This document shows, piece by piece, positions 23,367 through 37,183 of a DNA stretch of 64,000 nucleotides; positions within the stretch are counted from its first letter, which is position 1, and each line of letters begins with the position of its first letter. This DNA is from Bacteroidota bacterium (lineage in GTDB: Bacteria > Bacteroidota > Bacteroidia > Flavobacteriales > JADGDT01): assembly GCA_039714315.1 (NCBI GenBank), contig JBDLJM010000003.1, positions 2,692 through 66,691 on the forward strand. The letters are read 5' to 3'. Both the position numbers and the translations under genes were made by a program. The notes under the pieces are model-generated. The model was given only the letters and a program-made list of their open reading frames with translations, was not told the DNA's origin and searched no databases.

Positions 23367-25556
23367 TTAATCAATCCAATGTAGTACATCGTGAACTATA
23401 CTCCATCTGGGTTTAGTTTCTTTAACCTCTTTTCCTAAAACCCAATAATCATATAACCTTTCAATAGTTTTATCCTTTTTCTTCAACTCTATCCAGTGAT
23501 TCAAAAAAGTCTCAAATTCCGGATCCGGACTCCCAAAAGTGTATACCAAAGGAAGTGTTACAGGTTCCTCAAACGGACTTATAACCTGAAATTCAGGATA
23601 TAACAACGCCCATGCCGATCCCGACTCGGCAGTTGTTAACAATGCGTCAATTTCGGGATATTTCCCATTAAAAAAATTATAAATAGAATCTTTTTTTACA
23701 ACATTTGATTGTGGAAAAATACTCTTAAAAATATCTCCAAAATTATTTTCCTCAGCTGTAAAAACATTGACCATACTATTATAGGTTTCATCGTAACTTT
23801 CCAGAGTATTAATCTTGTCCTTAGTTACCAAAGCAACATTAACATCCATATATCCGTCAGTTACAACATGACCTTTAGCATAACGAGCTGTAAGTGCTGT
23901 ACCCGACATTATTAAATCTATATAATCCTTTTCCAATAACTCGTCTCTCGATAATTTTTGAGCATTTATTGAGATAAATTCTATCGAAACATCCAAATCG
24001 GAAGCTAAAGTGTGGGCCATATCAATATCCAAGCCAACAATATCACCTTTTAAATTGAAATAAGAAAATGGCATAGCATCCTCATAAAATCCAATTCTGA
24101 TTTTCTCACGCTCTTTGATCCTTTCTATCCTACTCTTTCCTCTTCTCAACCTTGGATATATTGGTGCCGGATCCTCTAATAAGCTTGATTTAATTTCATA
24201 AGTAAGCAAATCCATATCGGCAATAACCCTATCCTTTGTATATGCACCCTCAAGTGCATAATTAAGATATATATTAATCGGTATAAATAAAACAAATGCG
24301 CCTATCACAGTTGAGGCAATAGCTATTGTAAGCTTACGTTTTTTCAGATTAAAAAATCCATAGGTCATAGCACCGGTTAAAATTACAATAGTTATTAGGT
24401 GCATTGAACCTAAAACAACTCTGATCCTATCGATATAAACACTCGAAATAACAAACAAATTAAATATATCTCCGGGAATATTCATCACATCCAGCATAAA
24501 AGGTATACCCGAAACCGGAGCTACAAAGCTACTCATCAGCAGGGAACCTATAAATGCGGGATATTCGTCAAATGTTATCTCATTTCCAACGAACCATCCG
24601 GCAAATGGCACAAAAATAAATACAACCAGTGTACCTAAATTTGGGAATGGATATGCCAATGGGAAAATTACTTCAACAGATTGTTCACTGTCATCATTTA
24701 GCAGGTCATAATCATCGTACAACTGTTTAATGTTTTCAATCAACTGTGGTAATACAATAATTATTTTTCCTGTTGCAAAAATTGTAATTAAAGTGTCCTT
24801 TGTAACTCTAAAAATATCTTTGTACTTAAAAGGTGTAAATGATGAAATAATTAAGGGCATAAAAACAATAGCCAGTAATACGGCCCCTGCTGTATATACC
24901 AAAACATAGGTTTGCAACTTACCTATCTCACTTAAGGTCATAGTTCCCGCTGTGCTTGCAGCAATAGCAAAAACACCATATGGAGTAAGCTTGACAATTA
25001 ATTTATTTACATTATTAAGAGCGTTTGCCATAACGTCTAAGCCATGTAACAGCCTTTCTTTCCCCGGAACCTTAATCAGCCCAATCCCTACCAAAATACT
25101 AAATATCACTACAGAAGGGACTGTATTTTTCGATAATGCTTCAAATGGATTAGACGGAATAAATAACTTTAAAAAATCTATTTCCTTGGGATCTCTGATC
25201 AGACTTTCATCATAATAAGATGCTGACACCCAGGTAGGAAAAACTGTTGGTAATACAAGAACTACAACAATTCCAAGCAACAATAATACAGATAGAACTA
25301 TTGCAGCATTTTTTATCATTTTCATCCCTTTATCTAACGACAGACGTCCGATGTTTACCATCAACGAAAGCATGATATAGGGTAAAACAGTCATTTGTAA
25401 CAATCCTATAAAGGCATCACCAAAAATAGAAAATCCGGCAACATGTTCTCCAAAAAACAGACCAAGTGCTACCCCTAAAAATAATCCTATCATTATTTTT
25501 GTTGAAAGACTCTTTGGCGCTTTTCTTTTTTTTCTCCTGAATCTCCTCAATACCAT
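23367..25556 (-). CDS. Dicarboxylate/amino acid:cation symporter (DAACS) fused to a C-terminal family-3 solute-binding domain
   Basis: 729 aa. Residues ~20-400 are a polytopic GltP/DctA-like region. There is an extra TM helix at ~409-431. Residues ~485-729 resemble amino-acid-binding SBP_bac_3 (IRIGFYEDAMPFSYFNLKGDIVGLDIDMA...). Confidence 0.75.
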   Translation of the reverse strand: MVLRRFRRKKRKAPKSLSTKIMIGLFLGVALGLFFGEHVAGFSIFGDAFIGLLQMTVLPYIMLSLMVNIGRLSLDKGMKMIKNAAIVLSVLLLLGIVVVLVLPTVFPTWVSASYYDESLIRDPKEIDFLKLFIPSNPFEALSKNTVPSVVIFSILVGIGLIKVPGKERLLHGLDVMANALNNVNKLIVKLTPYGVFAIAASTAGTMTLSEIGKLQTYVLVYTAGAVLLAIVFMPLIISSFTPFKYKDIFRVTKDTLITIFATGKIIIVLPQLIENIKQLYDDYDLLNDDSEQSVEVIFPLAYPFPNLGTLVVFIFVPFAGWFVGNEITFDEYPAFIGSLLMSSFVAPVSGIPFMLDVMNIPGDIFNLFVISSVYIDRIRVVLGSMHLITIVILTGAMTYGFFNLKKRKLTIAIASTVIGAFVLFIPINIYLNYALEGAYTKDRVIADMDLLTYEIKSSLLEDPAPIYPRLRRGKSRIERIKEREKIRIGFYEDAMPFSYFNLKGDIVGLDIDMAHTLASDLDVSIEFISINAQKLSRDELLEKDYIDLIMSGTALTARYAKGHVVTDGYMDVNVALVTKDKINTLESYDETYNSMVNVFTAEENNFGDIFKSIFPQSNVVKKDSIYNFFNGKYPEIDALLTTAESGSAWALLYPEFQVISPFEEPVTLPLVYTFGSPDPEFETFLNHWIELKKKDKTIERLYDYWVLGKEVKETKPRWSIVHDVLHWID

Positions 25557-27568: not shown

Positions 27569-27650
27569 GCGGCTGTGGTGGAATTGGTAGACACGCTAGA
27601 CTTAGGATCTAGTGCCGCAAGGCGTGGGGGTTCGACTCCCTTCAGCCGCA
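27569..27650 (+). tRNA. tRNA-Leu (anticodon UAG), copy 1
   Basis: Acceptor stem GCGGCTG/CAGCCGC plus discriminator A. Anticodon arm ctaga-CTTAGGA-tctag. Long variable arm, TTCGACT T-loop, and no encoded CCA. Confidence 0.9.
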
Positions 27651-27673
27651 CTTTATTGAAACAATATTCACTC

Positions 27674-27755
27674 GCGGATGTGGTGGAATTGGTAGACACG
27701 CTAGACTTAGGATCTAGTGCCGCAAGGTGTATGGGTTCGACTCCCTTCATCCGCA
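27674..27755 (+). tRNA. tRNA-Leu (anticodon UAG), copy 2
   Basis: Same architecture as copy 1. Acceptor stem is GCGGATG/CATCCGC (compensatory 5:68 change relative to copy 1), with a few differences in the variable/T region. Confidence 0.88.
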
Positions 27756-27757
27756 CA

Positions 27758-27798
27758 GCAAAAAGAGCTTTCTGTTTTTACGGAAAGCTCTTTTTTTA
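27758..27798. terminator. Bidirectional terminator between the tRNA pair and the thiolase gene
   Basis: Stem agagctttc (27764-27772) pairs with gaaagctct (27783-27791). It is flanked by an A-run upstream and a T-run downstream, and sits at a convergent junction. Confidence 0.85.
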
Positions 27799-27815: not shown

Positions 27816-29033
27816 TTACTCAACTTTTTCCAAAACCATCGCTATTCCCTGCCCTACTCCAATACACATGGTACACAATGCTTTTTTTGCATCGGAATTT
27901 TGTAATTGGTAATATGCACTTGTCACAATTCTTGCTCCGCTCATTCCCAGCGGATGACCTAAGGCAATTGCTCCTCCAAGTGGATTTATTCTCGGATCAT
28001 CATCTTTTAATCCTAATTCTCGTGTACAACCTAACGACTGTGCAGCAAAAGCTTCATTGAGCTCTATTATATCCATATCGTCTAATGACAGGTCGAGTTT
28101 AGATAAAACCTTTCGGGTTGCGGGTACCGGCCCCATTCCCATAATTCTGGGGAGTACGCCCGCTGTTGCCATTCCCAGTATTTTAGCTCTTGGTTTTAAA
28201 TTATACTTTTTCACAGCCTCTTCCGATGCTATTAGCATTGCAGCAGCACCGTCGTTTACACCTGATGCATTACCTGCAGTGATACTGCCATTTTCTCCGC
28301 TTGCCGACTTGGTAATTGGTCTTAGAGTACTTAATTTTCCCAAAGATGTTAAGCGTGGATGTTCATCCTCCGAAACTTCGATTGGATCTTTTTTACGCTG
28401 TGGCACCATTACCGGAACAATTTCTCTCGCCAGAGAACCGTTTTTTTGAGCTTCGGCAGCTTTCTCCTGACTCCATTGGGCAAATGTATCCTGATCTTCA
28501 CGGCTGATATTGAAATCATCGGCTATGTTCTGGGCAGTTTGTATCATACCTTCGGTGCCATACATTTCGTCCATCTTTGGATTTTCGAAACGCCATCCAA
28601 TAGAAGTATCATAAATTTTGGCATTTCGCGAAAAAGCAGTTTCTGCTTTCCCCATTACAAACGGAGCCCGCGACATACTTTCTACTCCACCGGCAACTAT
28701 CAAATCAACCTCTCCCGATTTAATTGCCCGTGCCGCAATTCCAATTGCATCCATTCCCGAACCGCAAAGCCTGTTTATCGTTGAACCCGGCACAGTTTCC
28801 GAAAAACCTGCAAGTAATGAAGCCATACGTGCAACATTACGGTTGTCTTCGCCTGCCTGATTGGCACAGCCCATAAAAATATCATCAATAGCCGCCGAAT
28901 CCATTTCCGGATTCCTGTCCATTATTTCTTTTAATGGTATGGCTGCTAAATCATCAGCTCTTACAGATGATAAAGCCCCACCGTATCTTCCAACCGGTGT
29001 TCTTATTGCGTCACAAATATATACTTCGTTCAT
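27816..29033 (-). CDS. 3-oxoacyl-CoA thiolase of the PcaF/PaaJ (3-oxoadipyl-CoA thiolase) type
   Basis: 405 aa. Catalytic NRLCGSG, GHPLGMSG and CIGVGQG. The strings ICDAIRTPVGRYGGALSSVRADDLAAIPL, CANQAGEDNRNVARMA, SMSRAPFVMGKA and IGWRFENP are, from my recollection, hallmarks of the PcaF/PaaJ subgroup rather than AtoB/PhaA. Confidence 0.9.
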   Translation of the reverse strand: MNEVYICDAIRTPVGRYGGALSSVRADDLAAIPLKEIMDRNPEMDSAAIDDIFMGCANQAGEDNRNVARMASLLAGFSETVPGSTINRLCGSGMDAIGIAARAIKSGEVDLIVAGGVESMSRAPFVMGKAETAFSRNAKIYDTSIGWRFENPKMDEMYGTEGMIQTAQNIADDFNISREDQDTFAQWSQEKAAEAQKNGSLAREIVPVMVPQRKKDPIEVSEDEHPRLTSLGKLSTLRPITKSASGENGSITAGNASGVNDGAAAMLIASEEAVKKYNLKPRAKILGMATAGVLPRIMGMGPVPATRKVLSKLDLSLDDMDIIELNEAFAAQSLGCTRELGLKDDDPRINPLGGAIALGHPLGMSGARIVTSAYYQLQNSDAKKALCTMCIGVGQGIAMVLEKVE

Positions 29034-29038
29034 TCTTT

Positions 29039-30394
29039 TTATTTTTTTGATAACTGGTCTATTTTGGGTTTTAACACCCTGAAACCATTCAAAAGACCAT
29101 CCGTTAATTTATCAACATCTTTCTGAGTGTGCGTTGTTGCAAACATACATGCCAATGTATTTATCATGATTATATCTTTTTCAAGAAACAGGTAATCGAG
29201 AAACTCTGTAATTACTGACTGTGTATCCGGTCCCTGATAGGTTTCCCTGTAAGTATTCGGTGCTTTTTCTTTAAAGTGAATCCTAAACATTGAACCTGCG
29301 CCCGTTAAACAGGCAGGAATATCTGCTATTTTTATAGCTTCTTCTATCTGTTTTCTCGCAGTCATTGTAAGGGCATTTATTTCCAAAACAGCTTTCTCGT
29401 CAAATAACTCCATAGCTACCCTTCCGGCAGTAGTTGAAACCGGATTGGCAGAAAATGTCCCTGAATGCGGATGCCTGAGAAATTTTTGACGCGGATCAAG
29501 AACCTCCATTATTTCCGATTTTCCGGCAACTGCTCCAATAGGAAATCCACCACCGATAATTTTTCCCATTGCAGTCATATCAGGTTTAACAGAATAATTT
29601 GCCTGAGCTCCCGAATAGTTTACCCTGTAAGTAACTACCTCATCGAAAGCTAAAACAGCATTATTTTTTCTTGTCCAGTCATATAATGCTTTCACAAACT
29701 CCTCTGTGGCAGGAAACAGACCTACACGGTGAGGAACCGGATCAATCAACACACAGGCAATATTATCTGCATCTTGATCCAGCAACCTTATGGTTCTTTC
29801 AATGTCATTATATGGAAATATCACCACATCGTCCATCACGCCCTGAGGTGTTCCCTGAACAACCGGTACAGTATTGGGTTTATCTATATCTCCCCAGTTA
29901 CCCGGATTGGCAGTCTGACTTATTTCTGCAAAATCATAAGTGCCGTGATAAGCTCCTTCGGCTTTGGCTATTTTAGCTTTTCCGGTAAGAGCTCTGGCCG
30001 CTTTTATCATAGTCATAACAGCCTCAGTACCCGAGTTCATAAACCTGATTTTTTCAAATCCCGGAGTACGCGATATCAGCAATTCGGCAAACGCCACCTC
30101 TGCTTCAGATCCCATAGTAAAAGCAGAACCCTTTTTTAATTGTTCCGTAACAGCATTAACAATTGCAGGATGCGAATGTCCATGTATTAATGAAGCCATA
30201 TTATTTGCAAAATCCAGACGTTCTGTTCCATCTATATCTTTTATATAACTGCCGTGAGCACTGGCTACATAATATGGGTGAGGTTTTCTGTATATGGTAT
30301 TTCTACTTACTCCACCTGTAATTACTCCAACTGCCCGTTCGTAAATAGCCTTGCTTGATTCGCCTTTGGCTGTTTTATTGGATTGAGGTTTCAT
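29039..30394 (-). CDS. Class-III (GSAM/HemL-like) PLP aminotransferase
   Basis: 451 aa with layout and motifs of the glutamate-1-semialdehyde aminomutase-like branch (NSGTEA, DEV.T.R, and a lysine in MGKIIGGGFP). Confidence 0.85.
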   Translation of the reverse strand: MKPQSNKTAKGESSKAIYERAVGVITGGVSRNTIYRKPHPYYVASAHGSYIKDIDGTERLDFANNMASLIHGHSHPAIVNAVTEQLKKGSAFTMGSEAEVAFAELLISRTPGFEKIRFMNSGTEAVMTMIKAARALTGKAKIAKAEGAYHGTYDFAEISQTANPGNWGDIDKPNTVPVVQGTPQGVMDDVVIFPYNDIERTIRLLDQDADNIACVLIDPVPHRVGLFPATEEFVKALYDWTRKNNAVLAFDEVVTYRVNYSGAQANYSVKPDMTAMGKIIGGGFPIGAVAGKSEIMEVLDPRQKFLRHPHSGTFSANPVSTTAGRVAMELFDEKAVLEINALTMTARKQIEEAIKIADIPACLTGAGSMFRIHFKEKAPNTYRETYQGPDTQSVITEFLDYLFLEKDIIMINTLACMFATTHTQKDVDKLTDGLLNGFRVLKPKIDQLSKK

Positions 30395-30415
30395 GATATT
30401 TCAGAATTTAGCTTT

Positions 30416-31078
30416 TTACTCAGTGTATAAATTAAGTTTTGCCCCGGTGTGCTTTTGTAAATAATCAAAATCTACATTAGGTCCCATTTCTCTAACATAT
30501 AAACCGTCATTTTCAACATCTATTATGGCCAGATCGGTATATATTCTTTCCACAACGCCCTTTCCTGTAAGAGGAAATGTACACTCATCAATTATTTTAG
30601 GAACTCCTTTTTTGGTCACATGTTGGGTAATCACCAAAATTCTTTTCACTCCGGCAACCAAATCCATAGCTCCCCCAACAGCAGGAATAGCAGTTTTAGC
30701 ACCGGTTGACCAATTGGCAAGATCTCCATCTCTGGAAACCTGCATTGCTCCCAGAACACATACATCTATATGCCCTCCGCGGATCATAGTGAAACTGTCG
30801 GCATGATGAAAATAACTGGCTCCTGGTATAGAAGTAATACATTTTTTACCCGCATTAACCAATTCCCGGTCTTCTTTCTCCTTTGGCGGTACCTTTCCCA
30901 TACCGAGTAATCCGTTTTCGGTCTGATAAATCAACTCCCGGCCTTCGGGAACAAAATCGGCAACCATCTCGGGAATTCCGATTCCAAGATTTACATAAGA
31001 ACCATCAGGGATGTCTAAGGCCACTTTTTGAGCCATTTCTGAACGATCCCAACCTATTTTTTTATCTGTATCTACCAT
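30416..31078 (-). CDS. 3-oxoacid CoA-transferase subunit B
   Basis: 220 aa. YVNLGIGIP and SENGLLG-type (TENGLLGMG) motifs of ScoB/PcaJ/AtoA. Overlaps subunit A by 7 nt. Confidence 0.9.
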   Translation of the reverse strand: MVDTDKKIGWDRSEMAQKVALDIPDGSYVNLGIGIPEMVADFVPEGRELIYQTENGLLGMGKVPPKEKEDRELVNAGKKCITSIPGASYFHHADSFTMIRGGHIDVCVLGAMQVSRDGDLANWSTGAKTAIPAVGGAMDLVAGVKRILVITQHVTKKGVPKIIDECTFPLTGKGVVERIYTDLAIIDVENDGLYVREMGPNVDFDYLQKHTGAKLNLYTE

Positions 31079-31785
31079 GGGTATCTCATTCCTTGTGCCA
31101 CTAATTCTGATTCGTGAGCAGGGTTATTAATCTCTATAACTCTTTTTACAAATATCCCCGGAGTAACAACTACCTCAGGGTCTATTTCTCCGGCTTCAAC
31201 TATATGTTTCGTCTGAACTATTGCAGTTTTTGCAGCCGTACACATTATAGGCCCGAAATTTCGGGCTGTTGCGTGATAAGTCAAATTGCCATACCTGTCG
31301 GCTTTTTCACTTTTAACCAGTGAAAAATCTGCAACTATTCCATGTTCCAAAACATACTCTGTTTCGTTAAACATACGCGACTCCTTACCATGGGCAAGTA
31401 CTGTATTTACAGATGCCGGTGTGTAAAAAGCTGGTATTCCGGCTCCTCCGGCACGTATCCTTTCGGCCAAAGTTCCCTGAGGGACCAATTCCAGTTCTAT
31501 CTCTCCGGCATTATATAATTCCGGAAAAACAGTTGAATTTGCAGTTCTGGGAAAGGAGCAAATCATTTTCTTTACACGCTTGTGTTCTATCAGAGCAGCA
31601 AGACCTATATTTCCGCTACCTGTATTGTTACTTACCACTGTAAGATCTTTTGCTCCCTGATCTATTAAAGCATGAATTAGCTCTATAGGGCTCCCGGCCT
31701 CACCAAATCCGCCTATCATAACTGTTGCCCCATCATGAATATCACTAACCGCTTTTACAGCTGATTCAACAATCTTATTAATCAT
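31072..31785 (-). CDS. 3-oxoacid CoA-transferase subunit A
   Basis: 237 aa. IGGFG...G.P, ELVPQGTLAERIRAGGAGIPAFYTP and a GNL block typical of ScoA/PcaI/AtoD. Confidence 0.9.
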   Translation of the reverse strand: MINKIVESAVKAVSDIHDGATVMIGGFGEAGSPIELIHALIDQGAKDLTVVSNNTGSGNIGLAALIEHKRVKKMICSFPRTANSTVFPELYNAGEIELELVPQGTLAERIRAGGAGIPAFYTPASVNTVLAHGKESRMFNETEYVLEHGIVADFSLVKSEKADRYGNLTYHATARNFGPIMCTAAKTAIVQTKHIVEAGEIDPEVVVTPGIFVKRVIEINNPAHESELVAQGMRYPW

Positions 31786-31823
31786 AATATTTTATATAAA
31801 ATGAATAGATTTATTAAATAACC

Positions 31824-33377
31824 TTATAAGGTTTTCTCCAGAATAGTCTTATTTTCAAGACCTTCTTCTATACCGGCTAATTCTTCCTCATAGAAATAAT
31901 TACCACCTTCTAAAGGTTTTAGTTTCTCTATGGTGTTTTCTTTTTCATCATATTCAGCTAAATATACCTTATCGAGCCACTCCATGTTTCTGGCTTCATT
32001 AAATTTCAGTACAAAGGCCTTTTTGCCGTTAACTTCTACTGTACCCAATAAAGATGTTTTTCCTGCAGAAGACGTCATTGTAATATATCTCGACGGACGC
32101 GAAACTGAAGGAAGACTTCTGTATATTTTGCTAAATACTTTATTTATATCAGCCAATGGAGCAGTAAAATAATGATGTTCTCCGGTTGGTCTGGCCATAT
32201 ACATCGAATGGAAACCTATTCCTAACATAGTTAATATATGTGCCAAATCAATCCAGTTTTGGGCAGACTTATCTACATCTACTTTCCCGTTTTCGTATTT
32301 AAACAGACTGATATGGTTCATAATAGGACTTTGACTCTTCACGTTAACTCCGTTTGATCTTAATCTACGAACGGCAGCTATTGTTTGGATATTCATCAAC
32401 TCTTTTGGAGCTGAAAAATGCCCCATCCACAATACCTGAACTCCATTCTCTCCTAACTTTTTAAACAATTCGAGAGTTTGATCATACTTCGAATTAAGAA
32501 TCATTCCGGGATCGAAAGTTAGAGCTCTTGATGCTATCCTTATTGTTCTGACATGCATTAATTCAGGATCTTCAATTAACGGAGTCAGATACTCCTTTAA
32601 TCTATTATATGGCATATAACCTCCATCTCCCCCGGTAACAAGAATATCTGTTACCTCCTTGTGCTGTCTAAGATATTGATGCACCGGAGTTATTTCGTTT
32701 TGAATAAACATATCTTCATCTCCTCTAACCTGAGCATGACGAAAACAATAAGTACAAAAAGAGAAACAGCTTTGTGTTGTTTTATCAAAAATTAAAAAAC
32801 ACTGGGGATACTTGTGCTGACTACCGTCTAGTGTATCTATGTCTCCTTCCTCGTTATAGAATGAAGGCCTGTTTAAAAGCTGCTTACCGTCGTGAGGATT
32901 AGTTTTTTCAATGTAATCCGTAGCAATTTTGGTTCTTTTTACAGCATCTTCTTCTTCCAGATATTCCCCAACTGTTCCTTCGTTTATCATGTTTGGCTGA
33001 GGAAAAGTCAGCTGAAAGACTGAATCGTTCTCATAATTCTCCCAGTCAATAGTATTTAATACGTGCTTTGTTACCATGAAACGGTATACTTCTATAAAAA
33101 GCTCACGTTCACTGATATCACCAAGTATAATACCATTTTCTTCCAGTATAGAACAAATTTCCCTGAAACCTTCTAAACCGGTATAACGTTTTTTTGAATC
33201 TTTAAATATAGCTTTTGATTTTACCTGCAACCTCGAGTGTTGAGGGAAACTATTGTGCAACCTGCTAAGCAGGCCCGTAGGAAGTAAATTTTCCTTTTCT
33301 ACATTACTTATTGCGTCATCACTCATAGAGTGACGCTCAATAAGACTTTTTACTACAGATGGTTTTATGGTAATCAT
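31824..33377 (-). CDS. KamA-family radical-SAM, PLP-dependent amino acid 2,3-aminomutase-like enzyme (substrate unknown)
   Basis: 517 aa. CxxxCxxC at C204/C208/C211 (CFSFCTYC), a GGD SAM motif (LVTGGDGG), and a candidate PLP lysine K440 (SSAGK) aligned to GGGGK of lysine 2,3-aminomutase. Confidence 0.85.
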   Translation of the reverse strand: MITIKPSVVKSLIERHSMSDDAISNVEKENLLPTGLLSRLHNSFPQHSRLQVKSKAIFKDSKKRYTGLEGFREICSILEENGIILGDISERELFIEVYRFMVTKHVLNTIDWENYENDSVFQLTFPQPNMINEGTVGEYLEEEDAVKRTKIATDYIEKTNPHDGKQLLNRPSFYNEEGDIDTLDGSQHKYPQCFLIFDKTTQSCFSFCTYCFRHAQVRGDEDMFIQNEITPVHQYLRQHKEVTDILVTGGDGGYMPYNRLKEYLTPLIEDPELMHVRTIRIASRALTFDPGMILNSKYDQTLELFKKLGENGVQVLWMGHFSAPKELMNIQTIAAVRRLRSNGVNVKSQSPIMNHISLFKYENGKVDVDKSAQNWIDLAHILTMLGIGFHSMYMARPTGEHHYFTAPLADINKVFSKIYRSLPSVSRPSRYITMTSSAGKTSLLGTVEVNGKKAFVLKFNEARNMEWLDKVYLAEYDEKENTIEKLKPLEGGNYFYEEELAGIEEGLENKTILEKTL

Positions 33378-33448
33378 TTCTTTTATGGTTTACGCAAATA
33401 CTCCTAAAGAGTATCAGTTGTGGTTATTTATTTTATTTAAACTTTATT

Positions 33449-34000
33449 TCAATTAATTAGTGTTATTACCCAGAGCAATTCAGCATCATCATCACTAATA
33501 TTCCTAAACAAATGCGGTCTGTTCGAATTAAAATAAAAACTGTCACCACTGCTTAAGGTGTATTGTTTTCCATCAAACTCTGCTTCGAAATCTCCTTTTA
33601 ATACAAAGCAAAACTCCTGACCCGGATAGTTGCTTGTCATAATTTCTTTTGAATCTGAATTTTTATCGAATTTTATTATATAAGACTCTATCTGCTTTCC
33701 GGGAATGTGATTCGATAATAAATAAGAGAATGTTCCCTTATCGTTCTTTTTTGCAAGCTTTCTTTCACCTGACTTCAATAGGGGGCTTTGAATATTATTT
33801 TCATTTTCTCCTATTAACTCACCTACAGTAGTTTTTAATGATTCAGCAACTTTTTTTAAAGTAACTATTGATGGGAAAGCCTTTCCTTTCTCTATTTGAG
33901 AAATTAAACTCGGAGTAACTCCAATCATGATTGACAACTCTTTTATTTGCAACCCGAGTTCTTCTCGTTTCCTCTTAATTCTCTTACCCATTCGTTCCAT
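33449..34000 (-). CDS. XRE-family HTH regulator with C-terminal cupin sensor domain (PuuR-like architecture)
   Basis: 183 aa. The HTH_3 region is LGLQIKELSIMIGVTPSLISQIEKGK. The C-terminal cupin region is GQEFCFVLKGDFEAEFDGKQYTLSSGDSFYF. Confidence 0.85.
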   Translation of the reverse strand: MERMGKRIKRKREELGLQIKELSIMIGVTPSLISQIEKGKAFPSIVTLKKVAESLKTTVGELIGENENNIQSPLLKSGERKLAKKNDKGTFSYLLSNHIPGKQIESYIIKFDKNSDSKEIMTSNYPGQEFCFVLKGDFEAEFDGKQYTLSSGDSFYFNSNRPHLFRNISDDDAELLWVITLIN

Positions 34001-34345
34001 AACAGCCGGAATTAATTTTATTTAACTAATTAAACTTTACTACACAAAGTAAATGTAATTTAATTAATTAAACAATGTATTTCCGTAATAATCTGGTGAT
34101 ATTTGTCATATAAACCAGTGCAATCAATTGATATATGTTTATTTCTTCAGAAAGATAGATCACTGTTATTTTCCGGTGGGAGTAAAATATTGCACTAACC
34201 TAAATTCCGACAAGTAATCAACTCATCGTTAATTGTATGTTTAGCTATTTCGGTAAATTTATAATCCCGCCTTAGCGGGACTATAAACAGCACTGTAGAT
34301 GTAAAAACTTCTTGTAGAACTCACGTTATTACTATTTACCAATAA

Positions 34346-34391
34346 CTAAAAAGTAAGCACCTGCATGATACAGTCAGGCAGGTGCTTACTT
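34346..34391 (-). terminator. Rho-independent terminator after serine-hydrolase gene
   Basis: 14-bp stem: aagtaagcacctgc pairs with gcaggtgcttactt (34351-34391), followed on the minus strand by TTTTT. Confidence 0.85.
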
Positions 34392-34466
34392 ATAAATTAT
34401 AATCCCAGAAAAATAGACTTAATCCATATTCGGGCAGATAAAGTTAGAGTACTATTCCGGTTATTA

Positions 34467-36008
34467 TTAATTTACCTTATATACTTTTAGTTCCTCAAAA
34501 AAGATATCATCATTTGGAACATCAAATTCTAGCCCTTTTACGTCCATATTATTATCACTTAAAAACTTAATAGTTCCAAAATTGAACCAAGCATGTGTAT
34601 TATCCCAATTTATTTTCCACACATCATAGTGCCAGTGACTCAAAGTTGCCGACAAGCTTGGAGAATATTCAAAATCAAGGCGAAGTTGATCATTCTTTTT
34701 AGAAACTCTTATTTCTCCGTAAATATCAGCCTTATAAACACCTGATAAATTATCTGTACTGATAGATGGAACGGTATTAAGTACCCTCTTATTTTTCCTA
34801 TCCGATACACGGGTATCAGCCTTCAGTTTAGCATCAGTTTTAGCCAAAAGTACAGAGGACCAGTCTTTTTCCTCTATTCCCAAAAACATATCCAAAGCAT
34901 AATTAGTTGCGGCACTAATCGGACTTTTCAATCCATTTGTAAGCACTACTACTCCAAGATTTTCATCCGGGATCATAGTAATGGCAGTTATCATACCGTC
35001 AAATCCTCCTGTATGTGATACCTTAAAATAACTATGATAATCGCTCAGGCCCCATCCTAAGCCATAAGCTCCAAAGTTCTGGCCGGTCTCATTCTTATTA
35101 ATATGGTCTACAATAAAGTTATTATGAGGAGTCCAAATCATATTTAAGGTTTCAGAAGCCAAAAGTGTATCCTTGCCTATCACTCCGCTATTCATGTTGA
35201 AAATCATCCATTCTGATACATCTCTCACACTGGAAATAACACCTCCCAGTGCACCTACTTCTTCCCAGTCTTCCCAAATAATGGGTATATTAACATTTTC
35301 CTCCCGAGCATGTGGAATTGCAAAGTTCCCTTTTGATTCTAATTTATCACGCGAAGTTATAGTTCTGCTCATACCAAGAGGTTCTAATATCCTCTCTTTC
35401 ACATTTACATTCCAGCTTTTTCCTGTTACTTTCTTTATTAGTTCTCCTGCAGTAATAAACATAACATTGGAATAACCATAACCTGATCTGAAATTATAAG
35501 CTTTTGGAACGTATTTAATTCTTTTAATTATTTCTTCTGAACTCAGGATCGATTTATACCATATAATATCACCGCTAAATGTACCCAACCCCACTCTGTG
35601 ACTCAATAAATCTCTTATCGTAACCTCTTCACTCACCCAAGGATCATACAAGGCAAAATACGGAAGATATTTTTTCACCTTGTCGTTCCAGTTTAACTTA
35701 CCTTCCTGAACCAACATTCCAATAACAGTAGCTGTAAATGCCTTTGAATTGGAAGCGATGGCATATAAGGTATTTTCATTAGGTTCTGCTTTTCCCCCTT
35801 CTTCAAGCACTCCATAATTACCGGTAAACACCAATTTACCATCCTTTACAATTCCTATGCTTGCTCCGGGAACATCCCAGTCCTTAACCATTTTAGCATA
35901 ATATTCATCGAGTTGTTTAAAGTCAATCCTTGAATCTTTCTGGGCCACCAAGCCTACAGATATAAACAGGAAAGAAATAATTAGAATCTGTATTTTTTTC
36001 ATATTCAT
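34467..36008 (-). CDS. Serine hydrolase (class-C beta-lactamase/DD-peptidase family) with C-terminal DUF3471-like domain
   Basis: 513 aa with a signal peptide, an SxxK motif (ASNSKAF), a YSN motif, and a C-terminal beta-rich domain. Confidence 0.85.
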   Translation of the reverse strand: MNMKKIQILIISFLFISVGLVAQKDSRIDFKQLDEYYAKMVKDWDVPGASIGIVKDGKLVFTGNYGVLEEGGKAEPNENTLYAIASNSKAFTATVIGMLVQEGKLNWNDKVKKYLPYFALYDPWVSEEVTIRDLLSHRVGLGTFSGDIIWYKSILSSEEIIKRIKYVPKAYNFRSGYGYSNVMFITAGELIKKVTGKSWNVNVKERILEPLGMSRTITSRDKLESKGNFAIPHAREENVNIPIIWEDWEEVGALGGVISSVRDVSEWMIFNMNSGVIGKDTLLASETLNMIWTPHNNFIVDHINKNETGQNFGAYGLGWGLSDYHSYFKVSHTGGFDGMITAITMIPDENLGVVVLTNGLKSPISAATNYALDMFLGIEEKDWSSVLLAKTDAKLKADTRVSDRKNKRVLNTVPSISTDNLSGVYKADIYGEIRVSKKNDQLRLDFEYSPSLSATLSHWHYDVWKINWDNTHAWFNFGTIKFLSDNNMDVKGLEFDVPNDDIFFEELKVYKVN

Positions 36009-36043
36009 TTTATTTATAGATAATGATTACAGCATGTGCTAAT

Positions 36044-37183
36044 TTACCCCTCAATATCCGACTCCGAAAAAGTAGTAATAGTCATTGTTTGATTATGTAG
36101 TTCACATTTAGTTCCTGAAATATATGGAGCAATTTCTCCATATGAATAGAATCCCGCTATAGTAGCATCCTCTCCTATAACATCTCTTACAGCTTCAACT
36201 TCCTCCTCTATAAGTTGATTCAGCACCAACCTTCTTCCTACACTGCTTACCAGAATTGCTAAGTCGGTATGTGTATTTCCTATATCCTCAATACTTAATT
36301 CTGCCGCACCTTCTGCCCCGTTTATGAGTCTTTCCATGTTCGCCTTCATCAGCCTAACAGTTGCACCTTTGGGAATATTCCCTGCGAACGTCAATGATTT
36401 TTCTTCCTCATTCATAGCAATAACCGTTCTTACAACCGGATTATCATTTGCTTTAATTCGCACACTTAAAGGAAATAATAAGCCTGTAGCCGGAAGATTT
36501 TTAGCCTGATCGCCTAAAAAGTTCCTGAATAAATCAAGAACAGGCTCACCATCAATTTCATAAAGAATATTTCCTCTTGATTTCGTTACAATTCTATCAA
36601 CACCAAAACTATCCCATCCTCCCAGAGAACCATATCCCACCTTTAAATCATCTCCATAAAATCCTATCCCGGTAATCATATTCTCTCTGATCTCCATATC
36701 ATTCGTAATAACGAAGGTTCTCCCGAATTTTGTTTCATCTCCTGCCAAACCACCGGTTATTGAATACTGTTGATCGCTTTGATGTTTTAATCCGTTCACC
36801 AGTGATGTCCCGTTAATATTTAATCCTTCGGATAAAACAAATAAGTGTTTCAAACCTTTCTGCTCAAACTTGTCTACTAATTCAGTACCCGCAAGTCTGC
36901 TTTTATTGATCGAAGGTACATACACTTCATTGTATTCTACACGCGATTTATCGAACGAAATCGCTGTCGCCACTACACTGTGATCATGTACGTTAATATC
37001 CTCAATTTCTCCTGAAGTTGAACATCCGGTTATAATTGAATCAGGATACAGCTCACGAAAATTCTTTAATAAATCTAAATTTTTAAACGAAGGTGATACA
37101 AATAAAAGAATAAGATCAGGGTTAAAAGAAAACTCTTCCAACTCTGTATCTCCGGCATAAATAACGATTTGTTCTGTAGTCAT
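36044..37183 (-). CDS. FIST-domain (FIST_N + FIST_C) sensory protein, no output domain
   Basis: 379 aa. The layout is typical of stand-alone FIST proteins (…LILLFVSP…, …GFYSYGEI… near the C-terminus). Confidence 0.75.
   Translation of the reverse strand: MTTEQIVIYAGDTELEEFSFNPDLILLFVSPSFKNLDLLKNFRELYPDSIITGCSTSGEIEDINVHDHSVVATAISFDKSRVEYNEVYVPSINKSRLAGTELVDKFEQKGLKHLFVLSEGLNINGTSLVNGLKHQSDQQYSITGGLAGDETKFGRTFVITNDMEIRENMITGIGFYGDDLKVGYGSLGGWDSFGVDRIVTKSRGNILYEIDGEPVLDLFRNFLGDQAKNLPATGLLFPLSVRIKANDNPVVRTVIAMNEEEKSLTFAGNIPKGATVRLMKANMERLINGAEGAAELSIEDIGNTHTDLAILVSSVGRRLVLNQLIEEEVEAVRDVIGEDATIAGFYSYGEIAPYISGTKCELHNQTMTITTFSESDIEG

Follow-up and report, generated by a model that had tools for sequence, protein, structure and literature searches.

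In a 64,000-nucleotide (nt) stretch of a contig from a Bacteroidota bacterium (JBDLJM010000003.1, positions 2,692 to 66,691; hereafter the window), six co-directional minus-strand genes (27816–34000) place a transcription regulator and a relative of lysine 2,3-aminomutase (KamA) beside two coenzyme A (CoA)-transferase subunits, a class-III aminotransferase and a thiolase. What compound would such a unit act upon, and in what order would its enzymes work? The first-pass annotation of this DNA read the genes as a self-contained route from an alpha-amino acid through a beta-amino acid and a 3-oxoacid to a 3-oxoacyl-CoA that is split by the thiolase, with 2-aminoadipate as the preferred substrate. 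Wherever this reading could be checked by computation, the outcome agreed with it. We are confident that the general scheme, in which an alpha-amino acid is turned into a beta-amino acid and a 3-oxoacyl-CoA is finally thiolysed, is right, and we regard 2-aminoadipate as the probable substrate. For the complete statement, namely that the unit is a regulated gene cassette for the breakdown of L-2-aminoadipate, with transamination of the free acid, we put the chances at about even.

The route would begin with L-2-aminoadipate, which arises from lysine breakdown via saccharopine. The KamA-fold enzyme, of the radical S-adenosylmethionine (SAM)/pyridoxal phosphate (PLP) type, would shift the amino group from C2 to C3 to give 3-aminoadipate, which the class-III beta-transaminase would convert to 3-oxoadipate with 2-oxoglutarate or pyruvate as amino acceptor. 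Judging by its family, the PcaIJ/ScoAB-type transferase would then move CoA from succinyl-CoA to form 3-oxoadipyl-CoA, and the PcaF-type thiolase, assigned by an equivalog-level match, would cleave this intermediate to succinyl-CoA and acetyl-CoA. In sum, 2-aminoadipate, a 2-oxoacid and CoA would yield an amino acid, succinate and acetyl-CoA with neither a redox step nor a decarboxylation, bypassing the 2-oxoadipate/glutaryl-CoA route. Being redox-neutral and free of CO2 loss, such a route would suit the many anaerobic or facultative carriers described below. The regulator, a protein with XRE-type and cupin domains, probably turns on expression of the unit when it senses a metabolite of the pathway. 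We infer all of the catalytic activities, and the substrate, from sequence comparison and gene context.

Conservation and spread of the cassette

The layout first described for the unit (six minus-strand genes with their coordinates, spacing and family assignments) was borne out in full by a check of the open reading frames (ORFs) in the window and by Pfam and NCBIfam searches. From the regulator to the thiolase, the intergenic distances are 71, 38, -7 (an overlap), 21 and 5 nt.

Relatives of the KamA-like protein were sought in one genome per species. Of the 121 that were found, we kept the best 80 loci, each with 10-kb flanks. Gene order was judged by tblastn with the window proteins, and the denominators given here count the loci long enough to be judged. 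We also clustered the flanking ORFs of all 80 loci and examined the neighbour families common to at least three of them, which are called conserved neighbours below. The gene for CoA-transferase subunit A follows the KamA-like gene in 76 of 76 loci, and subunit B (73 of 73), the class-III aminotransferase (67 of 67) and the thiolase (52 of 60) take their places in the same order. Order and strand are identical throughout the surveyed loci, which come from about ten phyla. A recurrence of this kind, in 80 loci and many phyla, is far beyond chance, and it contradicts the idea, raised at the outset as an argument against a common pathway, that these genes might lie apart in related genomes.

Judging by the titles of the loci, carriers among the Bacteroidota include Flavobacteriales, Bacteroidales, Marinifilum, Draconibacterium, Maribellus and Lentimicrobium. 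Others belong to Marinimicrobia, Lentisphaeria, Cloacimonadota, Edwardsbacteria, Acidobacteria, Aminicenantes and Ignavibacteria/Melioribacteraceae, and the cassette also occurs in Planctomycetota (Tepidisphaeraceae), Alphaproteobacteria (Anderseniella) and Gammaproteobacteria (Pseudoalteromonas). The carriers include cultured strains, among them Draconibacterium orientale DSM 25947, Marinifilum fragile JCM 15579 and Lutimonas halocynthiae CECT 8444. Because flanking genes and regulators vary from phylum to phylum, the five enzyme genes behave as one self-contained module.

The KamA-like protein of the window has the same sequence as a 'hypothetical protein' encoded in a Bacteroidota metagenome-assembled genome (MAG), and its matches number at least 1,490 protein clusters. 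Identity to it is 65–78% among the 120 best of these, whose names, where given, are either 'L-lysine 2,3-aminomutase' or 'hypothetical'. Clustering of a protein library at 50% identity reduces the whole family to one full-length representative (61% identity), and relatives beyond it share no more than 38% identity. By these comparisons, the family is tight and strongly conserved and sits on a long branch. We considered whether sister families share the cassette and ruled this out for the two that were examined (P0129 and P0124), whose gene contexts are unrelated; relative to these two, association with the cassette is specific to the tight family.

In the 50%-identity library, the wider KamA-like clade (P0124–P0270) amounts to 77 clusters at E < 1e-30. 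None of the ten members that were scanned reaches any NCBIfam cutoff, and among 20 aligned members the PLP lysine is present in all, the cysteine triad in nearly all, and an arginine at the position of KamA D293 in most. This clade may consist of uncharacterised aminomutases.

Predicted functions of the enzymes

The gene at 31824–33377 (minus strand) encodes a divergent KamA-fold radical-SAM/PLP protein of 517 amino acids, our candidate for an L-2-aminoadipate 2,3-aminomutase, which is recognised by a weak match to the Radical_SAM and KamA families and by its fold. It scores below the cutoffs for the KamA family (TIGR00238, 75.6 bits vs 199.2), for lysine 2,3-aminomutase (TIGR03820, 64.5 bits vs 525.4) and for the glutamate 2,3-aminomutase equivalog (TIGR04368, 49.6 bits vs 650). 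It passes no model in NCBIfam release 20 (June 2026), and its NCBI name is 'hypothetical'. By its profile scores, it is a distant branch that lies outside the KamA family as TIGR00238 now draws it.

The sole sequence match in the PDB is KamA itself (2A5H, E 2.8e-9, and 1e-12 in a profile search), to which the protein is 18–26% identical. Alignment of a 31-sequence family profile to KamA with hhalign gave a probability of 97.5% over 271 columns. An AlphaFold (AF2) model with a predicted local distance difference test score (pLDDT) of 79.5 and a predicted template-modelling score (pTM) of 0.83 was compared with the PDB by Foldseek. The search returned 2A5H at E 6e-13, with a template-modelling (TM) score of 0.63–0.64 over approximately 420 columns, and the next match had an E value above 1e-3. 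As modelled, the protein has the KamA fold. Its first 95 residues form an N-terminal helical extension (pLDDT about 88–96 over residues 1–50 of the AF2 model) that has no counterpart in KamA or most sister families and is common only to the protein's own family and the relative P0124.

Residues were compared with those of KamA in a MAFFT alignment, for which 25 family members and intermediate relatives served as a bridge, using a KamA sequence verified to be identical to 2A5H; positions are given in full-length numbering. The motif CFSFCTYC (CxxxCxxC) brings C204, C208 and C211 into register with KamA C125, C129 and C132, and these three cysteines are invariant in the 25- and 31-sequence alignments. 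In KamA, the triad binds the [4Fe-4S] cluster for SAM cleavage. Also invariant in the family are R213, which aligns with KamA R134, and K440, which aligns with KamA K337 by both MAFFT and hhalign. The position of KamA D293 is taken by R396 according to MAFFT and by A395, with R396 adjacent, according to hhalign; the arginine is again invariant. The counterpart of KamA D330 is T433, and the zinc-binding cysteines of KamA (C268, C375, C377 and C380) have no counterpart. In the KamA structure described by Lepore and colleagues in 2005, K337 is said to carry PLP, R134 to hold the substrate carboxylate, and D293 and D330 to bind the epsilon-amine of lysine. Since the cysteine triad, R213 and K440 are kept while the equivalents of D293 and D330 are lost, the protein appears to have retained aminomutase chemistry without the residues that select lysine. 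The glutamate 2,3-aminomutases studied by Ruzicka and Frey in 2007 reportedly carry Lys and Asn in place of the two lysine-binding aspartates. An Ala-Arg pair and a threonine at these places in our protein fit a substrate with an acidic side chain.

The genes of canonical lysine fermentation were thought from the start to be missing from the unit. A search of the conserved neighbours and of the annotated flanking genes of the window, the extent of the genomes that it covered, found no kamDE, kdd, kce, kal or kat. Because these genes are absent from the conserved neighbours and the lysine-binding aspartate pair is not conserved, we conclude that the protein is probably not a plain lysine 2,3-aminomutase, in agreement with the initial proposal.

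The thiolase gene (27816–29033, minus strand) has a clearer assignment of substrate than the CoA-transferase genes. Its product is a predicted 3-oxoadipyl-CoA thiolase of the PcaF/PaaJ type that passes both the pcaF equivalog TIGR02430 (672.4 bits vs cutoff 597) and NF006551 (692 bits vs cutoff 605). Against the PDB, it scores approximately 540–550 bits with the beta-ketoadipyl-CoA thiolases 6PCA–6PCD, and approximately 275–325 bits with chains deposited as acetyl-CoA acetyltransferase. Judged by these matches, the enzyme is of the 3-oxoadipyl-CoA and not of the acetoacetyl-CoA type.

The two genes before the aminotransferase encode a family-I 3-oxoacid CoA-transferase, with subunit A of the PcaI/ScoA type at 31072–31785 and subunit B of the PcaJ/ScoB type at 30416–31078 (both minus strand, with a 7-nt overlap). 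Subunit A matches TIGR02429 with 343.3 bits (cutoff 128.5) and subunit B matches TIGR02428 with 298 bits (cutoff 243.55), both being subfamily-level models only. The structures nearest to subunit A are those of ScoA (3CDK and 3RRL). Subunit B carries the motif QTENGLLG, of the (S/T)ENG type, the glutamate of which we take to be catalytic. The nearest plasmid homologues of the transferase are 62–68% identical and have generic names, and one lies beside an IclR regulator. The closest plasmid homologue of subunit A (68% identity) is found on Tistrella mobilis plasmid pTM2 (NC_017966.1, 335828–352532), approximately 2 kb from genes for a DUF1338 protein, an aldehyde dehydrogenase and a PLP aminotransferase. 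DUF1338 is the family of the 2-oxoadipate-converting enzyme HglS, and this context hints at another link between PcaIJ/ScoAB-type transferases and aminoadipate metabolism.

The remaining enzyme gene (29039–30394, minus strand) encodes a class-III aminotransferase resembling glutamate-1-semialdehyde aminomutase (GSAM), which we propose to be a 3-aminoadipate:2-oxoacid beta-transaminase. It matches PF00202 with 198.5 bits and scores 326.8 bits with the hemL model, where the cutoff is 527.3, so that it falls below the hemL cutoffs. The best match in the PDB is 6K8H (373 bits, 47% identity over 383 residues), followed in the list by ForI, GSAMs and the beta-transaminases 2YKU (MesAT) and 4AO9 (VpAT). 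The 6K8H protein is an omega-transaminase from Sphaerobacter thermophilus that accepts aromatic, branched and aliphatic beta-amino acids as well as a gamma-amino acid, and its R36 appears to hold the substrate carboxylate (PMC10589169). This arginine, N70 and the PLP lysine K282 are conserved in the cassette protein as R31, N65 and the lysine of the sequence GKIIGGGFP. The role of beta-transaminase, proposed in the first-pass annotation, is thus supported by the substrates of the closest characterised relative.

These comparisons bear on the order of the reactions. Were the CoA-transferase to act first, it would make 3-aminoadipyl-CoA, and the aminotransferase would work on the thioester to deliver 3-oxoadipyl-CoA to the thiolase, an alternative that is outside the scheme of the first-pass annotation. 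Such an order would follow that of the genes in the cassette and would avoid free 3-oxoadipate. A model for it is provided by Kat, a HemL-like 3-aminobutyryl-CoA aminotransferase of Cloacimonas and a digester Bacteroidetes, thus of Cloacimonadota and Bacteroidetes, that accepts only CoA or N-acetylcysteamine (NAC) thioesters and adjoins a thiolase (PMC3149608). The two Kat proteins, CLOAM0809 and DIG1_60031, are approximately 65% identical to each other.

We recovered a kat gene from a metagenome contig (L083) through an exact match to the published forward primer. The ORF (L083:2741-3985) starts with MAEKLKLA and ends with EVKKML, both termini being those required by the published primers, and a thiolase gene lies upstream. 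In the same region (L083:1170-3985), a CTP synthase gene follows, and a methylmalonyl-CoA mutase/MeaB pair is found nearby. The recovered Kat shares only 27% identity with the cassette enzyme, which rules out that the latter is Kat itself. In contrast, the free-acid transaminase 6K8H is 47% identical and shares the carboxylate-binding arginine, and by sequence the cassette enzyme is much nearer to the free-acid beta-transaminases than to Kat. Furthermore, the PcaIJ/ScoAB-type transferases known to us have been characterised on 3-oxoacids and not on beta-amino acids. Transamination of a CoA ester is therefore unlikely in our estimation, and we retain transamination of the free acid in the preferred scheme.

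Candidate substrates and relation to known pathways

Three lines of evidence support 2-aminoadipate as the preferred substrate, as first suggested: the PcaF-equivalog thiolase, the invariant arginine near the position of KamA D293, and the fusion of the cassette to genes of the saccharopine pathway in three phyla. The two commonest extra neighbour families are a saccharopine dehydrogenase (SDH; Sacchrp_dh_NADP/C) and an aldehyde dehydrogenase with a score above the cutoff of the L-piperideine-6-carboxylate (P6C) dehydrogenase equivalog NF050084 (796 bits vs 730). Genes of the saccharopine pathway are joined to the cassette in 16 loci. Fourteen of these are Prolixibacteraceae-type loci (Maribellus, Draconibacterium and related MAGs), all of which have an SDH paralogue divergently upstream; in the 12 with contigs of sufficient length, genes for P6C dehydrogenase and a second SDH directly follow the thiolase gene on the same strand. 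An operon of Cloacimonadota (L032) consists of genes for SDH and an AlaDh_PNT-type enzyme, which has the lysine-ketoglutarate reductase (LKR) fold, then the five-gene cassette and an amino-acid permease, with gaps of 13–14 nt before the cassette. In an alphaproteobacterial locus (L071), the P6C dehydrogenase gene follows that of the aminotransferase. Since LKR, SDH and P6C dehydrogenase together turn lysine into 2-aminoadipate, three phyla tie the cassette to this compound.

Glutamate is another acidic amino acid that might enter the cassette. It would be converted via beta-glutamate to 3-oxoglutarate and then to malonyl-CoA and acetyl-CoA, or 3-oxoglutarate would lose CO2 to become acetoacetate, the source of two acetyl-CoA. 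An acidic substrate of this kind suits the loss of the KamA aspartate pair and the invariant arginine, and the transferase family includes enzymes acting on acetoacetate. However, the aminomutase-like protein reaches only 49.6 of the 650 bits demanded by the glutamate 2,3-aminomutase model, the thiolase is a 3-oxoadipyl-CoA equivalog rather than an acetoacetyl-CoA thiolase, and the fused neighbours produce 2-aminoadipate, with glutamate merely as a by-product. We consider glutamate a very unlikely substrate.

The cassette could also serve some other amino acid, such as leucine, which would pass through beta-leucine to isobutyryl-CoA and acetyl-CoA, or lysine, which would pass through beta-lysine and 3-oxo-6-aminohexanoate to 4-aminobutyryl-CoA and acetyl-CoA. 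Beta-leucine is among the aliphatic beta-amino acids accepted by the 6K8H transaminase, and enzymes of the KamA family act on lysine. In addition, we know of no gene identified for the long-postulated leucine 2,3-aminomutase (EC 5.4.3.7). Nevertheless, Asp293 and Asp330 of KamA are both replaced, and an invariant arginine in the side-chain pocket would be an unlikely partner for either leucine or lysine. The thiolase is of the PcaF type, and the LKR, SDH and P6C dehydrogenase encoded by neighbouring genes consume lysine by a different route. Taken together, these observations make such a substrate quite unlikely.

A different set of neighbours occurs in four loci of Marinimicrobia and Lentisphaeria (L019, L023, L024 and L029), where a fungal-type homoaconitase gene (TIGR00139, 804 bits) and a homoisocitrate-dehydrogenase-like gene are found upstream of the regulator and cassette on the same strand. 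In L024, a phosphoenolpyruvate (PEP) carboxylase gene lies downstream of the cassette. We rejected these neighbours as a complete 2-oxoadipate module, as they are interrupted by unrelated genes and a homocitrate synthase gene was not seen among them. As evidence on the substrate, this aminoadipate-related context is weak.

These same genes belong to biosynthesis by the aminoadipate pathway and raise the possibility that the cassette runs in the synthetic direction, from succinyl-CoA and acetyl-CoA through 3-oxoadipate and 3-aminoadipate to 2-aminoadipate, for lysine or a secondary metabolite, or else that the radical-SAM protein is no aminomutase at all. All four reaction types are reversible in principle, and the KamA-like protein scores below every KamA-family cutoff. 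Set against this are the regulators of catabolic type that accompany the cassette (PuuR-like XRE-cupin, LysR and apparent AsnC/Lrp), the amino-acid permease of the Cloacimonadota operon and the P6C dehydrogenase, oxidative in direction, that is fused to the cassette. Among the conserved neighbours, we found no genes for nonribosomal peptide synthetases (NRPS) or polyketide synthases (PKS), and the PLP lysine, the carboxylate arginine and the cysteine triad are invariant, as would be expected of a working aminomutase. We give little credence to either version.

It is highly improbable, in our judgement, that the cassette is a general reversible link between 2-aminoadipate and succinyl-CoA plus acetyl-CoA that in some lineages serves beyond lysine disposal. 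In Marinimicrobia, this reading would include a shunt from 2-oxoglutarate and acetyl-CoA through homocitrate, 2-oxoadipate, 2-aminoadipate, 3-aminoadipate and 3-oxoadipate to succinate and acetyl-CoA. Such chain elongation, an equally improbable part of the same idea, would need a homocitrate synthase and a 2-oxoadipate transaminase besides the genes present in Marinimicrobia. If it existed, the shunt would take the place of 2-oxoglutarate dehydrogenase or 2-oxoglutarate:ferredoxin oxidoreductase in the tricarboxylic acid (TCA) cycle, and in reverse it would be a new way of supplying 2-aminoadipate to lysine synthesis.

Several points weigh against the catabolism of 2-aminoadipate by way of free 3-oxoadipate, which we nevertheless prefer. 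The searched literature has 3-aminoadipate only in untargeted metabolomics and meteorite chemistry, and not as a recognised metabolic intermediate. Free 3-oxoadipate is chemically labile, and a gene order of mutase, transferase, transaminase and thiolase fits transamination of a CoA ester equally well. Saccharopine-pathway genes are adjacent to the cassette in only 16 of 80 loci, 14 of which belong to one family, and no such gene is present within the 64-kb window. The thiolase gene is not adjacent in 8 of the 60 informative loci. For the transferase, specificity for 3-oxoadipate and for acetoacetate (ScoAB) is not separable by NCBIfam, PDB or plasmid homologues. Finally, MAFFT and hhalign differ by one position as to which residue replaces KamA D293, and an arginine is found there in most sister families also, two of them in unrelated gene contexts. 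The arginine by itself therefore cannot name the substrate.

Several characterised systems share parts with the proposed route. Lysine fermentation in Fusobacterium, Clostridium and Cloacimonas (KamA, KamDE, Kdd, Kce, Kal or Kat, AtoAD and thiolase) likewise begins with a 2,3-aminomutase of the radical-SAM/PLP type and has a family-I CoA-transferase and a thiolase as its last enzymes, and its Kat variant also has a HemL-like beta-transaminase beside the thiolase (PMC3149608). However, the conserved neighbours of the cassette lack kamDE, kdd, kce and kal, each shared component (aminomutase, transaminase and thiolase) is of another subfamily in the cassette, and lysine is handled by saccharopine-pathway genes in those cassette loci that carry them.

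The lower beta-ketoadipate pathway (PcaIJ and PcaF) uses the same two enzyme families, with the thiolase alike at equivalog level, and ends in the same proposed products, succinyl-CoA and acetyl-CoA. In that pathway, 3-oxoadipate derives from aromatic-ring cleavage, whereas in the cassette the transferase and thiolase are locked to an aminomutase-like gene and a beta-transaminase, and no aromatic-catabolism genes accompany them among the conserved neighbours. Glutamate 2,3-aminomutase (EC 5.4.3.9, TIGR04368) similarly belongs to the KamA family, acts on an acidic amino acid and has both lysine-binding aspartates replaced. The cassette protein differs from it in being approximately 100 amino acids longer, with an N-terminal extension, and in its gene context.

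The cassette aminotransferase belongs to the same subfamily as 6K8H and the GSAM-like beta-transaminases MesAT and VpAT, but these were examined for use in biocatalysis, with mono-carboxylic beta-amino acids as substrates, and belong to no assigned pathway, whereas the cassette gene stands in a conserved operon and would have a dicarboxylic substrate. Known catabolism of 2-aminoadipate proceeds by transamination to 2-oxoadipate and then through glutaryl-CoA to crotonyl-CoA, or by HglS (DUF1338) to 2-hydroxyglutarate. It shares with the proposed route the entry metabolite and the upstream saccharopine and P6C dehydrogenase steps. In contrast, the proposed route would dispense with oxidative decarboxylation, glutaryl-CoA and any oxygen-dependent step, and carbon would leave as succinate and acetyl-CoA.

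From these comparisons, the cassette is probably a new pathway, assembled from enzyme families already known but with one activity that is probably new. The first-pass annotation knew of no characterised pathway of this composition, and our full-text searches, which did not extend to most subscription journals, found neither a description of the route nor an aminoadipate aminomutase. If the reading is correct, the new activity would be that of a 2-aminoadipate 2,3-aminomutase, which to our knowledge is not among the listed EC 5.4.3 activities, and 3-aminoadipate would gain a role as a metabolic intermediate. The route would be a third exit from 2-aminoadipate, redox-neutral, free of decarboxylation and independent of oxygen, by which Bacteroidota of sea and sediment, Marinimicrobia, Cloacimonadota and others could complete lysine catabolism without the glutaryl-CoA branch. 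It would also offer a handle on a large unannotated family of at least 1,490 clusters, most of the listed ones nameless and those named by NCBI 'hypothetical', and on the wider KamA-like clade. The condensation of succinyl-CoA with acetyl-CoA is used in engineered adipate pathways. For biotechnology, the cassette would link lysine-derived C6 compounds to this condensation and might give access to a C6 dicarboxylic beta-amino acid. The cultured carriers make the prediction directly testable.

Regulator, boundaries and neighbouring genes

The first gene of the unit (33449–34000, minus strand) encodes a transcription regulator of PuuR-like architecture, in which an XRE-type helix-turn-helix (HTH) domain (HTH_3, residues 8–62) is combined with a cupin domain (Cupin_2, residues 126–179). 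The protein has a weak full-length match to the PuuR model NF007408. Among 74 loci of sufficient length, 32 have an XRE-cupin gene directly upstream of the cassette and in the same orientation. Its place is taken by a LysR regulator in the Pseudoalteromonas locus, and in that of Anderseniella by a regulator that by eye resembles the AsnC/Lrp type. The XRE-cupin protein is the likely small-molecule-responsive regulator of the unit. Just upstream of its start codon, AT-rich inverted repeats (I2, I3 and I5, 34017–34075) form a candidate promoter/operator.

A bidirectional terminator had been proposed to close the unit, and the element is real. The intrinsic-terminator hairpin at 27760–27795 consists of a 16-bp stem and a 4-nt loop, preceded by an A run and followed by a T run, and is located between the thiolase stop codon and two convergent tRNA-Leu genes on the plus strand, with which it is shared. 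A second hairpin (34342–34400) terminates the upstream beta-lactamase-family gene. With these two hairpins, the unit is bounded on both sides.

The GC content of the operon was at first put at 45–55%, above that of its surroundings. The direction of this difference held (39.2% in the operon region vs 34.1% in the remaining window), but the figures did not, since single operon genes range from 33.3% to 43.7%. The suggested calculation of windowed GC and codon usage places the excess at codon positions 1 and 2 and leaves the third position unchanged. GC at that position (GC3) is 0.30–0.33 in the operon genes and 0.29 +/- 0.03 in the other 33 long ORFs of the window. We attribute the excess to the protein composition of conserved enzymes, so that it carries no information on recent transfer; as GC3 equals that of the other window genes, we rejected the raised GC as a mark of foreign origin.

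Directly upstream of the unit (34467–37183, minus strand) are genes for a 513-amino-acid serine-hydrolase/beta-lactamase-family protein with a DUF3471 tail and for a sensor with FIST N and C domains; neither is among the neighbour families common to at least three related loci. Beyond the opposite end, 2.2 kb past the operon terminator and separated from it by the tRNA pair and two small genes, a gene at 23367–25556 (minus strand) encodes a 729-amino-acid fusion of a sodium:dicarboxylate symporter domain (PF00375) and a family-3 solute-binding domain (PF00497), which could be a carrier of acidic amino acids. The tandem tRNA-Leu(TAG) genes lie at 27569–27651 and 27674–27756 (plus strand). The two copies differ by a compensatory change in the acceptor stem (GCGGCTG...CAGCCGC vs GCGGATG...CATCCGC), and a few bases of the variable arm differ as well.

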